NCBI GenBank assembly: GCA_004297735.1
Contig: SCTI01000002.1
Coordinates: forward strand, 64,160 to 128,159
DNA length: 64,000 bases
Source: Patescibacteria group bacterium
GTDB lineage: Bacteria > Patescibacteriota > Saccharimonadia > UBA4664 > SCTI01
Direction: 5' to 3'
Shown: piece by piece, positions 40,159 to 59,422 of the stretch
Numbering within the stretch: position 1 is the first letter of the stretch
Layout: every line of letters begins with the position of its first letter
Notes under the pieces: generated by a model
The model's database searches: none
Told to the model about the DNA's origin: nothing
Seen by the model: the letters and a program-made list of their open reading frames with translations, nothing else
Position numbers and translations under genes: made by a program

Positions 40159-40272
40159 ATCCGGCACCGACCTACTTTCCCCATAAAGAGTATCATCGGC
40201 GCTGAGGAGCTTAACTTCGGTGTTCGGGATGGGAACCGGTGTGGCCTCCTCGCTAAAAGCACCGGGCTACCA
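40159..40272 (-). rRNA. rrf: 5S ribosomal RNA
   Basis: Reverse complement matches the bacterial 5S core (..CACACCGGTTCCCATCCCGAACACCGAAGTTAAGC..GCGCCGATGATAC..). Confidence 0.9.
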
Positions 40273-40289
40273 GCTAAACACGTGGTTTA

Positions 40290-43550
<3,261 letters not shown>

Positions 43551-43960
43551 TTACGATTCGTTTGACGAGCGATGTATGGTTACAAATTCATGTTTCCACC
43601 CATCACTCATTGGTTGGTATTGCATCTGTTTATGATCGTAAAAATTCATAAACAGTACCCAAAACAATTACATGGGAAGTAATTGTTTCGTCTTAAAATT
43701 CATTTAATTTTCAAAAAACAACTCCGCGGTTTGTACCTCGCGGAGCCCACATTCAAACAGACAAATTTACCTAGCCCGAGAACGTGCCTCCGTTAGTGCT
43801 GGTTAATTGTCTACTCATATATGAGCTCCAATAGTCGAAATTAAGAGTACCAAAATAACCAGGTGGTGTAAAGAGGTTAATTGTGACAAAAATAACAACG
43901 CCCCTCGCAGGTATTTACAACACTACGAGTGACGCTGAAATGTCGGGATAAATTAAGCGA

Positions 43961-53529: not shown

Positions 53530-53580
53530 ATGGACTCCATTACCTGGTGATTATAGCAGCTACTTGCTGTCGATGGAATA

Positions 53581-53603
53581 TGTAGATACAATGTAGATAC
53601 AAT
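53581..53603. repeat. Tandem direct repeat (GTAGATACAAT)x2 in the divergent atpB/mazE promoter region
   Basis: Read directly; candidate operator. Confidence 0.5.
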
Positions 53604-53923: not shown

Positions 53924-54242
53924 AGGCGATGTCGTTTGGGCCAACTTAAGCCCTTCCAAGGGCTCGGAGCAGCGTGGGCTCAGACCGGTTATCATACTAA
54001 CACCTACGATATATCATGCCAAAAGCGGCATAATTGTGGTTTGCCCAGTAACTTCTCGGAGTAAAGGGTACCCATTTGAGGTCCCGCTCCCCCTATCAGG
54101 CACAGTTAGGGGCGTGGCTCTGTGCGATCAGATAAGAAGCATTCATGTTACCTCAAGGGTGAAGGGATTTGCCGGTCAGGTATCGAGTAGAACCCTGGCT
54201 GAGATCGAAGAAAAGCTCAAAATATTATTGCAGTTTAGCTAG
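53895..54242 (+). CDS. mazF: MazF/PemK-family endoribonuclease toxin (start ATG overlapping mazE by 29 nt)
   Basis: GDVVWANLSP..G.EQ.G.RPVIIL..VVCPVTS pattern. Confidence 0.8.
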   Translation: MKAKYQSLTRGDVVWANLSPSKGSEQRGLRPVIILTPTIYHAKSGIIVVCPVTSRSKGYPFEVPLPLSGTVRGVALCDQIRSIHVTSRVKGFAGQVSSRTLAEIEEKLKILLQFS

Positions 54243-54280
54243 GACTGAGTTCTTTAGTATTCTACTGCTATAATCACCCC

Positions 54281-54841
54281 ATGACTAAAGTATCGGTTGA
54301 GTACGCTCACATATACACGAATCAACAGATTGCTGAGGAGCATCAAGTATCGCTCCAGGTTTTGAGCGGGGTTACTCAGGAGCTAGAAAATGCGGGTAAG
54401 AGTAGTTCTCTGGTGGTTCTGGTTGATGACTACTCCTTCCCCGATCCATCATTCGACTATAGCAAGTTCTCTGAATGGCTTGAGACACAGGGCTTTAAAC
54501 CTGATTTATTGTTTCGAGAGAGCCAACTGATACCTGTATGCGACGAGGTGCTTTCGCTCGTTAACGACACGCAATTGAAGACTCAGATCAATGACTACAT
54601 TAGGGCTAAAAAGTACCCTTGTTCATTATTTATTGCAGCGTGGTACCTACTTCGCCTTGGCAAGATTCAATCTCAGCTCTACCCTGTAGCACTACAATCG
54701 GATGAGCTGATTAATATCCTTCCCGAGAGCTTTAAGCCATTTGAAGATAAGGGGCTGGAAATTATCAAGGCTACCAAGTTTGCTAATGCCGCAGACTCTA
54801 TAAGTTATAAGTTCTTGCCCGGCCGACTTATTGCAGTTTAA
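54281..54841 (+). CDS. Hypothetical protein (186 aa) in a low-GC (about 44%) segment
   Basis: Clean ORF with a hairpin terminator downstream; composition differs from the backbone in the opposite direction to the GC-rich islets. Confidence 0.5.
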   Translation: MTKVSVEYAHIYTNQQIAEEHQVSLQVLSGVTQELENAGKSSSLVVLVDDYSFPDPSFDYSKFSEWLETQGFKPDLLFRESQLIPVCDEVLSLVNDTQLKTQINDYIRAKKYPCSLFIAAWYLLRLGKIQSQLYPVALQSDELINILPESFKPFEDKGLEIIKATKFANAADSISYKFLPGRLIAV

Positions 54842-54914
54842 ATGACTTGAGCGCCTCGACCGGGGTGTCGAAGCGCTCTCTGTGGCTTAGATGGCGGCGA
54901 CTCACTCGGAGTAA

Positions 54915-55106
54915 CTACTCTCCGTTTATCGAGCCGTCATAACCGTGAAGAGACACGATTGCGTAGCCATGATCACGGTTGGTGTTGCAGGTGTCGGTAG
55001 CAGCAGCGAGAGCCGCTACTAGGCCGAGAGCCCCGGCCCCGATGAGGCCAATCATCCTCCAGGGGTGCCCCCAGATGGCACCGGTCAGACGACCAAGGAT
55101 GATCAT
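54915..55106 (-). CDS. Tiny membrane peptide 4 of 4 (about 63 aa, single TM)
   Basis: ATGA overlap with the preceding peptide; GC-rich islet. Confidence 0.45.
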   Translation of the reverse strand: MIILGRLTGAIWGHPWRMIGLIGAGALGLVAALAAATDTCNTNRDHGYAIVSLHGYDGSINGE

Positions 55107-55246
55107 GGGCGCCACCCCGCCCCGTCTTCCTCGATGTCGACCCAGAGAAGCTCATCAGACCCCTTTGAACCGATCACCGCAACCAGGCCAATGGCCCCGA
55201 ACAAGGCGGCCACGGCGGCGGCCAGCTTGCGCTTCTTGTGCGTCAT
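55103..55246 (-). CDS. Tiny membrane peptide 3 of 4 (47 aa, MTHKKRKLAAAVAALFGAIGLVAVIG..)
   Basis: GGGAGGAGAG RBS; ATGA start/stop overlaps on both sides. Confidence 0.45.
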   Translation of the reverse strand: MTHKKRKLAAAVAALFGAIGLVAVIGSKGSDELLWVDIEEDGAGWRP

Positions 55247-55380
55247 GACCTGCTCTCCTCCCGGTAGGGAACGACGTTGTACTGGCGCGGCCTGATGCGA
55301 TCGTGAATTGAGTATGCGATGAGAGGAGCGATGAAGTAGGCCGCTACAGCCATCAACCCCAGCTTTACTACTCTACCCAT
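55243..55380 (-). CDS. Tiny membrane peptide 2 of 4 (45 aa, MGRVVKLGLMAVAAYFIAPLIAYSI..)
   Basis: GGAGGTAGGTG RBS; stop overlaps next ATG. Confidence 0.45.
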   Translation of the reverse strand: MGRVVKLGLMAVAAYFIAPLIAYSIHDRIRPRQYNVVPYREESRS

Positions 55381-55394
55381 CACCTACCTCCGAT

Positions 55395-55538
55395 CTAGTA
55401 GCCGTCGGCGTGATCGCGCTCGATCGCCCGTGAAGCAAAATGAGCTCCGATGAAGCCAAACACTGCCGCAATCAAGGCAGAGGCTATCACGATTCCGGCG
55501 CAAACGAGGACAATGTCGGTCGTACTCAGGTTTGGCAC
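55395..55538 (-). CDS. Tiny membrane peptide 1 of 4 (47 aa if GTG start with GGGAGG RBS; the ORF-track start at 55646 lies inside the 16S terminator hairpin)
   Basis: Single hydrophobic helix IVLVCAGIVIASALIAAVFGFIGAHF. Confidence 0.4.
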   Translation of the reverse strand: MPNLSTTDIVLVCAGIVIASALIAAVFGFIGAHFASRAIERDHADGY

Positions 55539-55599
55539 AGCACCTCCCAGGGTGAGAATTTGCTTATGCTGGGTAGAATTTAACCATAAGCCAGGAGCC

Positions 55600-55632
55600 A
55601 AAGCAACAAAAAACCACCCTTGGGGTGGTTTC
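55600..55632 (-). terminator. Intrinsic terminator downstream of 16S rRNA (AAACCACCCCAAGGGTGGTTTTTTGTTGCTTT on the minus strand)
   Basis: Stem plus U-run read directly. Confidence 0.8.
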
Positions 55633-55835
55633 AGCGTTGAAATCAAAGTAGTGCAGTGTAAGGGCCATACAGTTCACCCATCGTTGTGCTGATCTAGTCA
55701 GCGAGGTCTCTCATAAAGAGAGATCGACCTAGAAGTATCGCAGCCGATATCAAGAGCACGTCTTGCGACAGCTCAATTAACATCGGTCTGGCCGTAGGTC
55801 ATGCCTACGGAACATGTTGCCATGTCATTCTCCCT

Positions 55836-57347
<1,512 letters not shown>

Positions 57348-57631
57348 TTGATACTCCGAAGAGTATCTGGTTGTTTGAACCCGCTGCTAACTGTTGTTAA
57401 CTTTGGTTATTCTCAAAAGTGAACTGATGGTTTTCGTTTACACTGCACTACTTTAGATTTCAACTTGCAGCGTCAGGCGTATGGAGCTGGTGCCACCCAA
57501 AGCGCGTGCACGCTTTGGCAGACAAAAAATAGCCGACCCTTGGGCCGCTATCTAAGTGAGCTTCACACTTTCAAGACGTTAAGCCCAATTCTACTGGAGT
57601 GTTGCAATTGTGTCAACAGGTAAGACGTGGT

Positions 57632-59422
57632 TTAAGACTGGGGTTGGTTCTGATCTGGTGAGCCGGCAGACGACTGCTGCTCATCGAGACGATCAAGCGG
57701 ACTGTGGTGCGGAATAATGGTTGGTGCCACCGCACCATCTTCGAATGGAGCTTTTAGCTCGGTATTTGCGACCTCAATGTGGTGCTGCCCTGGCGGCTGA
57801 TAGGCCTGCGGGTCGTTTGCTGGGGGCTGAACGGCCGATGCGGCGGCCGGATTATTGGTTGGATTACTGGTTGGGGTTGCCGACACTGGCGCGGCCGCCT
57901 CGGGAGTAACACCAGCCGTCATATAACTTGAGGCGTCATAGCCACTCGATTGGCTGCGGCGGCGAATGAACCAAATACCACCCGCAATTAGCAGTAGCAG
58001 TACCACTACTAGGCTGATTATCATCGGCAGCAAGTTGCTTTGCTTAACGCCGGCTACCAGTATGGTTTGAGCGGTGTCGGACTCAAAGCTAAAGCCACCG
58101 GCATCTTGGTTGTAGGCAGTATCGCTCTTTTGCCACTGATTGTCCTTGTAGCCATACAGCACCGGCTTAAGCTGACCCATAGCGTCCTTGTCTACATTAA
58201 TGGTGTACTTAACCGGCTGCTTAAAGGTTTCGATGGTGTCACCGTTGGACTTTTTACAGATCAGCTTATAGGGTGAAGATTTGGCCTCGGTCCCCTTTGG
58301 CAGAGCCACCTCAATCTCTTTGTCTTCAATAATGCGACAGTCGGCCTCCTCTTCGAGGGCTCCAGCCGGGATAACCACCGCCACGGCAGCGTTTTCGCTT
58401 GAAATAGTGGTTTCCTCGTCGGTCTTGGCGTTAGGCTGGAACTGACCGGTCGCAATCTCGCCGTCAACGCTCGCGCTGGCGTTGATGGCGGCATCGTAGG
58501 CAATAACTCGGTAGTAGTAGGTCTTAGAGTAATCGGCGCCAGTGTCGGTATAGGTTGTGTCGGTAACGTTGTCGTTAAGCATGTCCCAGGCGGTCTTATC
58601 GGTAGAGCGCTCAACGCTGTAACGTGATACCCCTATATTATCGGTTGCGGCGGTCCAACTTAAAGCCACCATGCCAGATGAAGGCGAGGTGATTTTTAGA
58701 TCGGTTGGTGGATTCGGTGGAGTTGAATCAGTTTGGCTCGCAGCCGGGGTCGAAGCAGCCGGGGCGGCGGCGGGAGCGCTGGAGCGAGCCGCTGAGCTCG
58801 AGGCGACCTTGGGCTTGGCCGCCGGTGCTGAAGCTGGTTTTGGTGCTGCGGCAGCTGGTGCTGGTACAGGGCAGCCGCCGTTACTGGACGGCCCCGACTG
58901 AGTTGGACAGCGATCATCTTTGTCTGACACATTATCATTGTCAGCATCAGGATAGCGAACGTAAAACTCTAGATTATTGGTGACGCCGGCGGTTATGCTT
59001 ACCGGAATATTGGACTTGATCGGACTATTCGGAGCCACCTCCATACCAGCTGGAAGATTGGTAAACTGGTTAAAGAAAACGTTGAACTTCGTACAGTAGT
59101 CAATACAACCAAAACCGCCGAGCTGCCCATTGCCATTACCGTCAAAAGGCATCCACCCACCGGTTACTCCGCGTCCACTATCTTCAAAAATGCTTACATA
59201 AATATAGGTACCACTTGAAGGTGGAGCTTTTTTTTGACCGCCCGATACGTCATACATCCTCACGATCATTCCGGTGGGGTTATTGTAGGCAAATGATCCT
59301 CGCAGCCACAGATAGCCCAGGCCGGCCGACAAGACAATTAGCAGCATTGCAACTACAGCGCTAAACCTCCGGCTGCGGATTAGCTTAGCGGCGCGCTTCT
59401 TTTTAGGATGCTTTTTGACCAT
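57632..59422 (-). CDS. Surface protein with N-terminal signal anchor, thrombospondin-type-3-like motif, Pro/Ala linker, fibronectin type III domain and C-terminal TM anchor
   Basis: 596 aa; DNDNVSDKDDRCP motif; FN3-like LSWTAATDN..YYYRVIAYD; TTACAG-17-TATAAT promoter 11 nt from the ATG. Confidence 0.6.
   Translation of the reverse strand: MVKKHPKKKRAAKLIRSRRFSAVVAMLLIVLSAGLGYLWLRGSFAYNNPTGMIVRMYDVSGGQKKAPPSSGTYIYVSIFEDSGRGVTGGWMPFDGNGNGQLGGFGCIDYCTKFNVFFNQFTNLPAGMEVAPNSPIKSNIPVSITAGVTNNLEFYVRYPDADNDNVSDKDDRCPTQSGPSSNGGCPVPAPAAAAPKPASAPAAKPKVASSSAARSSAPAAAPAASTPAASQTDSTPPNPPTDLKITSPSSGMVALSWTAATDNIGVSRYSVERSTDKTAWDMLNDNVTDTTYTDTGADYSKTYYYRVIAYDAAINASASVDGEIATGQFQPNAKTDEETTISSENAAVAVVIPAGALEEEADCRIIEDKEIEVALPKGTEAKSSPYKLICKKSNGDTIETFKQPVKYTINVDKDAMGQLKPVLYGYKDNQWQKSDTAYNQDAGGFSFESDTAQTILVAGVKQSNLLPMIISLVVVLLLLIAGGIWFIRRRSQSSGYDASSYMTAGVTPEAAAPVSATPTSNPTNNPAAASAVQPPANDPQAYQPPGQHHIEVANTELKAPFEDGAVAPTIIPHHSPLDRLDEQQSSAGSPDQNQPQS

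Follow-up and report, generated by a model that had tools for sequence, protein, structure and literature searches.

A candidate unit of small single-pass membrane protein genes downstream of the 16S rRNA gene in a narrow Patescibacteria lineage

Annotation frequently overlooks the small membrane proteins of bacteria, whose genes are often translationally coupled in operons. In E. coli, AcrZ, KdpF, CydX, and MgtS are small accessory or regulatory membrane proteins with one transmembrane (TM) helix and no cleavable signal. We analyzed a locus that may encode proteins of this kind in a Patescibacteria group bacterium (Saccharimonadia), within a 64,000-nucleotide stretch of contig SCTI01000002.1 (assembly GCA_004297735.1, positions 64,160 to 128,159), referred to here as the window. 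As claimed in a first-pass annotation of the window, whose coordinates we confirmed, four consecutive open reading frames (ORF1 to ORF4; 47, 45, 47, and 63 aa) lie on the minus strand directly downstream of the 16S rRNA gene, its trailer and its terminator hairpin. Like the E. coli proteins, each is under about 65 aa and has one TM helix; a single 19-residue hydrophobic stretch, with a Kyte-Doolittle mean of 2.1-2.9, was found per ORF, as the first-pass annotation had stated. They differ from that class in having no similarity to curated families, in their very fast evolution, and in forming several distinct proteins in a row with no partner-complex genes beside them, the neighbors being the 16S gene and mazEF. 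Judged by the comparisons below, it is very probable that ORF3 and ORF4 are translated and represent two new families of narrow distribution; ORF1 is a probable gene, and ORF2, the weakest of the four, is uncertain. On balance, the four ORFs probably form an accessory unit of about 0.7 kb, independent and polycistronic, that encodes small single-pass membrane proteins.

Other described systems also share features with the locus. The type I toxins Hok, Fst, TisB, and Ldr are the products of single genes repressed by antisense RNA and usually have a basic C-terminus. The ORFs resemble them as short, lineage-restricted peptides near another toxin-antitoxin locus, each with the one TM segment expected of a small hydrophobic toxin ORF. 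The locus differs in having two to four coupled genes, acidic tails, strong Shine-Dalgarno (SD) sequences, and no identified antisense RNA. Promoter-like hits on the plus strand are confined to 55532-55579, where they coincide with the AT-rich -10 region of the minus strand and face away from the ORFs. Leaderless bacteriocins such as aureocin A70, garvicin KS, and enterocin L50 are cationic amphipathic paralogues of 30-44 aa encoded beside ABC transporter and immunity genes. Like the ORFs studied here, they come as two to four tandem small leaderless ORFs in one operon; the present peptides, however, are mutually unrelated, have acidic tails and classical TM anchors, and lie near no transporter. 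A leaderless multi-peptide bacteriocin is an improbable assignment, there being neither paralogy and cationic character nor adjacent transporter and immunity genes. The genes of the small membrane proteins AtpI and AtpZ precede atpB and share a strand with the atp operon, as the four ORFs do, and a Saccharibacteria relative (L003) has a 78-aa ORF with two TM helices directly before atpB. AtpI and AtpZ have two to four TM helices versus one per ORF here. We rejected equivalence to them, as no Pfam match was found and a terminator hairpin, the convergent mazFE genes, and a separate TATAAT box lie between the ORFs and atpB.

Relatives of the locus were collected using AtpB as a handle, which gave the JGI contig L083, and by exact-protein look-ups, which gave L163, L164, L165, L166, and L167. 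L083, L165, and L166 are identical at the locus, L163 and L164 represent one lineage, and L167 a third. The AtpB of L083 is 90% identical to that of the window; the nearest GTDB species representative by AtpB is a Saccharibacteria metagenome-assembled genome, with 52% identity. The gene order fn3 gene, 16S, small ORFs, convergent mazFE, atpB is common to the window, L083, L163, L165, and L166. In relatives whose AtpB is 63% identical, atpB is not preceded by small ORFs. The coding flanks of the window and L083 are 76-78% identical at the DNA level and the rRNA about 95%, but the stretch with the small ORFs (55566-54879) has no blastn match in L083. Synonymous sites are saturated between the window and these lineages (synonymous divergence, dS, of 0.75-2.8), so sequence still conserved between them is under constraint.

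All lineages have an ORF4-family gene upstream of the convergent mazFE. The homologues, at the same position in the locus as ORF4, are 69 aa in L083, L165, and L166 (P0006), 69 aa in L163 and L164 (P0007), and 61 aa in L167 (P0010), and are 40-47% identical to ORF4. Aligned with the window protein, these four members from four lineages share 16 invariant columns, and 11 of the 16 residues are encoded by differing codons. The family, about 60-70 aa in length, has an N-terminal M-x-I, HPW before the G/A-rich TM helix, DH, and HGYD(G/A)S near the C-terminus. Across the lineages the sense frame scores 95-106, and any other of the six frames at most 74. With a family profile, the members were found at E-values of 1e-38 to 7e-5 in an exhaustive search of 1.84 billion representative proteins; no further convincing member was found in that collection, the other matches being two long repetitive proteins. 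Cleavage of a signal peptide was dropped as a family feature, as the AxA site in the window protein is not conserved and L083 has a Pro at +1.

ORF3 also has a counterpart. The ORF just before the ORF4 homologue of L167 ends in SELYDAEIETDGMWRP, with an ATGA overlap between its stop and the following ATG. ORF3 ends in DELLWVDIEEDGAGWRP, and an identical ATGA links it to ORF4. The two tails are similar (p ~0.001) and share the C-terminus DG.WRP. In the sister clade of L163 and L083, where the genes are here named A (39 aa, at the ORF1 position), B (the middle gene, 49 aa), and C (the ORF4 homologue), B shares SELYD...DIE with the ORF3 and L167 tails, with weak statistics, and L163 has a TGATG junction instead of ATGA onto C. 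By comparison of the lineages, the distal pair ORF3-ORF4 is a conserved two-gene core, representing two new small-protein families in a narrow Patescibacteria lineage. ORF1 and ORF2 are either lineage-specific or diverged beyond recognition. At the ORF1 position the relatives have a different 39-aa TM ORF, A, behind a matching SD sequence; we rejected A as a homologue of ORF1 because the similarity is not significant. The sole similarity found for ORF2 is a marginal one to the N-terminal half of B (z = 4.5, p ~0.001, uncorrected). B (L163 809-958) itself has a hybrid look, its N-terminal half resembling ORF2 and its tail resembling ORF3 and L167. It may reflect a deletion-fusion or duplication between lineages, though the statistics are again weak.

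Substitution patterns show that the ORF4 frame is under selection. Between L163 and L083, dS is 0.19 for A and 0.15 for C, matching the flanking genes (0.12-0.40). The ratio of non-synonymous to synonymous divergence (dN/dS) is 0.19 for A, with five synonymous and three non-synonymous changes, and 0.48 for C, with seven and 11. Pooled over A and C, the excess of synonymous changes has a p of ~0.01 by our binomial estimate. Compared with the window, the ORF4 family has a dN/dS of ~0.24. Across the window and the three other lineages, identity is 86-92% for MazE, 64-84% for MazF, and 40-47% for the ORF4 family. Taken together, the locus is one of fast protein evolution with islands of constraint, not one of neutral decay. 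Conservation of the reading frames with a synonymous pattern had been proposed in the first-pass annotation as a check. ORF4 shows it in three other lineages and ORF3 has a homologue, but ORF1 and ORF2 have no detectable conservation. The four-ORF arrangement itself is not conserved, as the relatives carry two or three genes, so that the number of small genes is two, three, or four by lineage.

Signals for translation are present within the window as well. The first-pass annotation had described a strong SD sequence on every ORF. This is true of ORF1 to ORF3, each preceded by a perfect GGAGG at a spacing of 4, 6, and 10 nt from the start, respectively, but not of ORF4, which has only a weak GGTG. 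Each strand of the window has about 1.06 GGAGG motifs per kb, and we estimate the chance of finding it before three of four starts at ~1e-5 or less. A codon-usage log-odds model was trained on 30 long genes of the window, with scores expressed as percentiles among chunks of real genes. For each of the four ORFs the annotated frame was the best of six. ORF1 scored at the 25th percentile, ORF2 at the 8th, ORF3 at the 48th, and ORF4 at the 12th, with the bona fide gene mazF at the 4th. No spurious ORF reached the score of ORF3. The long ORFs on the opposite strand scored like spurious ORFs and are interrupted in the relatives.

That automated annotation would miss the small ORFs was borne out in part. 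ORF1 to ORF3, three of the four small genes, are absent from the NCBI annotation, but ORF4 is included (TAK88914.1, EPO04_02255), and a gene caller run on a Logan assembly of the same locus predicts all four. The description of the region as a GC-rich islet was overstated. A GC content of 64% applies to the central 300 nt only; the four-ORF stretch as a whole has 59.4%, versus a window mean of 54.3%, and lies at the 90th percentile of windows of the same size, with many stretches of the window at 60% or more. Since its GC content is at the 90th percentile, we dropped a GC islet or horizontal transfer as an explanation for the region. The contrast drawn with the low-GC neighboring gene has its source in that neighbor, a recent 603-bp insertion, which is the odd one of the two.

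Beyond the relatives, database searches returned little. Against Pfam, NCBIfam, PHROGs, PADLOC, and the PDB there was no family match, the best E-values of 0.02 or weaker being far below the cut-offs, and a profile of the four ORF4-family sequences found nothing in the PDB. By tblastn, the small ORFs had no match in phage and plasmid collections. A word-index protein search with ORF4 returned only ORF4 itself. The same type of search with ORF1, ORF2, and ORF3 concatenated gave nothing at E <=10, a weak negative for peptides under 50 aa as it did not recover these peptides themselves though they are present. Scans of JGI metagenome contigs and IMG/VR with back-translated patterns of the four peptides found nothing, with two of the six patterns spanning peptide junctions. 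No literature on this locus was found.

The four ORFs form a self-contained unit with clear boundaries (Table 1), running from the 16S processing stem and terminator through a promoter-like block and the ORFs to a strong hairpin. The 16S terminator hairpin has a 10-pair stem followed by a T-run (folding energy -18.2 kcal/mol, z = -4.0); in L083 and L163 the stem has another sequence and pairs equally well. Downstream of it, as read from the sequence, the -35 hexamer lies at 55606-55601 and TGG with the -10 hexamer at 55586-55578. A 25-nt block at 55566-55590, CTTATGGTTAAATTCYACCYAGCAT, is nearly identical in the window and in L083 and L163, and CTTATGGTTAAATTC represents the conserved promoter block of the unit. 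From this conservation we infer that the block (55566-55606) functions as a promoter; the TTGCTT/TTAAAT site (55606-55578) was not among the hits of a stricter promoter scan of the window. At the 3' end, the closing hairpin (-23.3 kcal/mol, z = -5.6) is nearly identical in sequence in L083 and L163, and L167 has a hairpin of another sequence at the equivalent position (-25.7 kcal/mol). In the relatives this hairpin stands back to back with the 3' end of the convergent mazF. Between L163 (1170-1260) and L083 (9151-9250), the stretch of about 110 nt from the stop of the ORF4 homologue to the terminator differs at about four positions. This divergence is below the synonymous 15-19% of the adjacent genes, and the stretch has no counterpart in the window. 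No Rfam family was found in the small-ORF region. The region has no repeats in the 64-kb window except a 26-nt match of the rRNA processing stem. A diversity-generating or repeat-driven variable cassette was rejected, as the window holds no template/variable repeat pair or other repeats.

Table 1. Features of the small-ORF locus and its boundaries in the window
Feature	Position	Strand	Description
16S rRNA gene	55838-57346	-	Upstream of the small-ORF unit
Intrinsic terminator hairpin	55610-55632	-	Closes the 16S transcription unit; upstream limit of the small-ORF unit
Promoter-like region	55566-55606	-	-35 TTGCTT, 17-nt spacer, TGG and -10 TTAAAT
ORF1	55395-55538	-	GTG start; 47 aa; SD GGAGG at 55547-55543; one TM segment
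ORF2	55243-55380	-	ATG start; 45 aa; SD GGAGG at 55391-55387; one TM segment
ORF3	55103-55246	-	ATG start; 47 aa; SD GGAGG at 55261-55257; one TM segment
ORF4	54915-55106	-	ATG start; 63 aa; no canonical SD; one TM segment
12-bp-stem hairpin	54849-54878		3' limit of the small-ORF unit

Expression of such a unit would begin at the conserved sigma-70-like promoter directly after the 16S terminator and end at the strong hairpin, with ribosomes loading at the perfect GGAGG sites of ORF1, ORF2, and ORF3. Both ATGA overlaps reported in the first-pass annotation are present, joining the stop of ORF2 to the start of ORF3 (55246-55243) and the stop of ORF3 to the start of ORF4 (55106-55103). As ORF4 has no SD sequence, it would probably be translated mainly by termination-reinitiation at its ATGA overlap, which would tie the output of ORF4 to that of ORF3. 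Reinitiation at ATGA is plausible because neither ORF4 nor its L167 homologue has an SD sequence, and the lineage with TGATG has AGGAG. The ATGA at both junctions, the missing GGAGG of ORF4, and the junction kept in L167 are consistent with the translational coupling proposed in the first-pass annotation.

The protein sequences suggest a common topology, most clearly for the distal pair. In ORF3 the N-terminus before the TM segment is basic and the acidic tail after it ends in DIEEDGAGWRP; in both ORF3 and ORF4 the N-flank is net-basic and the C-flank net-acidic. For ORF2 the N-flank is basic and the C-flank is net-basic too, and the flank charges of ORF1 are ambiguous. With the exception of ORF2, the C-flanks of the small proteins carry a net charge of -2 to -5; GSDELLWVDIEEDGAGWRP and HGYAIVSLHGYDGSINGE are among their tail peptides. 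By the positive-inside rule, the products would insert N-in/C-out, placing short acidic tails with His and Tyr on the outer face of the membrane. Their helices are rich in G and A, which suggests helix-helix packing into a small hetero-oligomer. The four peptides appear mutually unrelated and not paralogous. ORF1 and ORF3 are the sole nominally significant pair among them (z = 4.1), a local hydrophobic alignment uncorrected for 21 comparisons. The role of the module would be accessory and fast-evolving, not housekeeping. Membrane-acting toxins, bacteriocin-like peptides, and small regulatory subunits had been offered as possible functions in the first-pass annotation, and small subunits of a membrane complex seem to us the most plausible of the three.

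Several results weigh against an accessory unit with four functional genes. The tiling of ORFs is alone not beyond chance, as 44% of dinucleotide shuffles have at least four ORFs of at least 40 aa on one strand and 9% have equal coverage. Of spurious ORFs, 21% score as high as ORF2 in the codon model. No homologue of ORF1 or ORF2 was detected in protein, metagenome, and relative-locus comparisons. In the L083 lineage B has lost its 5' 108 nt with the locus otherwise kept, so that member is dispensable. The dN/dS of 0.48 for the ORF4 family is based on only 18 substitutions, and an AlphaFold2 model of ORF4, one long helix of low confidence (predicted local distance difference test score of 62), is uninformative. 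The locus may instead hold a coding distal module of ORF3 and ORF4, perhaps with ORF1, in which case ORF2 and possibly ORF1 would be ORFs present by chance in a GC-rich leader, or else sequence that has recently decayed or newly arisen. Such an arrangement seems unlikely to us, though it deserves the most serious consideration of the alternatives. The frequency of tiling in shuffles, the overlap of the ORF2 score with the spurious distribution, and the varying gene number among relatives are in keeping with it, as is a six-frame comparison of the ORF1-ORF3 region with A and B of L163, in which no sense-frame conservation was found and the best scores were those of low-complexity antisense frames. 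Yet both ORF1 and ORF2 have a start codon behind a perfect, well-spaced GGAGG, encode a TM segment, and outscore the other five frames in the codon model. The gene caller predicted both, the stop of ORF2 overlaps the start of ORF3, and A, the positional counterpart of ORF1, has a dN/dS of 0.19 in the sister clade.

A membrane-active toxin module, either a small type I-like or holin-like toxin with co-translated partner or immunity proteins or a leaderless bacteriocin of several peptides, with conflict driving the rapid evolution, is improbable. The sizes, single TM helices, and G/A-rich helices resemble those of pore-forming small toxins. The locus has variable gene content, evolves much faster than its neighbors (compare the identities of the ORF4 family and MazE), and is always adjoined by the mazEF toxin-antitoxin pair, but that adjacency is equally explained by common descent. 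The tails are acidic and not cationic, the peptides are not paralogous, and the neighbors (16S, a 186-aa orphan, mazEF, and the atp operon) include no ABC transporter or immunity gene. The searches against PADLOC, PHROG, Pfam, NCBIfam, and the phage and plasmid collections speak against toxins as well, as do the dN/dS values below 1 and the finding of no antisense promoter apart from the shared AT-rich -10 region. Slightly less probable still is a conserved slot beside mazEF, with a fixed promoter and terminators, in which outward-facing peptides are quickly replaced, lost, or reshaped in the face of an antagonist. If this were true, ORF3-ORF4 would be the functional core and the antagonist could be host-cell contact or phage, for episymbiotic Patescibacteria, or the locus could be a self-protection/membrane-toxin pair. 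That the region is non-coding, be it a rapidly drifting spacer, an RNA gene, or the fragments of a single, larger gene for a membrane protein, is very improbable, and for ORF3 and ORF4 it is largely refuted. It would account for the missing blastn match to L083 between flanks of 76-95% identity, for the lack of known families, and for the long ORFs on the opposite strand. The frame of ORF4, however, is kept in three other lineages despite saturated synonymous sites, and the antisense ORFs, broken in the relatives, have the codon scores of spurious ORFs. All four ORFs carry separate starts, and ORF1 to ORF3 also SD sequences of their own. No Rfam family lies in the region, and the concatenated peptides match no larger protein among 5.8 billion sequences, JGI metagenome contigs, viral contigs, phages, and plasmids.

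The locus adds two unannotated small-protein families, one ORF3-like and one ORF4-like, whose translation has comparative evidence in its favor and which belong to a phylum with an essentially unexplored small proteome. With its ATGA junction kept across lineages, the locus offers a compact test case for translational coupling. It offers another for the gain, fusion, and loss of small membrane-protein genes among close relatives. The family is confined to a narrow lineage, and the locus opens no major question by itself.

We also noted features of the rRNA genes and of the genes around the locus. A 26-nt match, 96% complementary, between the 16S trailer (55636-55660) and the 16S leader (57439-57464) is probably the pre-16S processing stem, and the trailer of about 200 nt is nearly identical in the relatives. 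The 16S gene is unlinked from the 23S-5S genes (40159-43552), which lie about 12 kb away, with the atp operon, two tRNAs, and mazEF in between; the arrangement is the same in L083. The 23S rRNA match (40381-43552) spans 3172 nt versus 2925 nt for the model, or about 250 nt extra, and no intron family was reported in it at the gathering threshold. Just upstream of the 16S gene, an fn3-domain protein of 596 aa with a C-terminal hydrophobic stretch is encoded on the minus strand (57632-59422). Its gene is unusually divergent from that of L083, with no blastn match over 58732-59414 and 71% identity beyond.

On the other side of the unit, the low-GC gene for the 186-aa orphan (54281-54841, plus strand) belongs to the 603-bp insertion (54225-54840), which is absent from all relatives. 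A perfect 13-bp direct repeat, TTATTGCAGTTTA, bounds the insertion and forms the 3' ends of both mazF and the inserted ORF. The orphan has no family match and is a singleton in a collection of 15 billion proteins. The mRNA of this gene may be leaderless, because a TATAAT lies 6 nt before its ATG. An exact 14-nt inverted copy, CTGCTATAATCACC, is found at 53546-53559, before atpB, and at 54265-54278, before the 186-aa gene. The run accession SRR11048275, from the sister lineage, reportedly occurs in papers on a cyanophage isolated from Serangoon Reservoir, Singapore. About 47 nt before mazE, the intergenic region towards atpB contains two perfect tandem copies of an 11-nt sequence, ATGTAGATACA (53580-53601), which could be an operator for MazE autoregulation.

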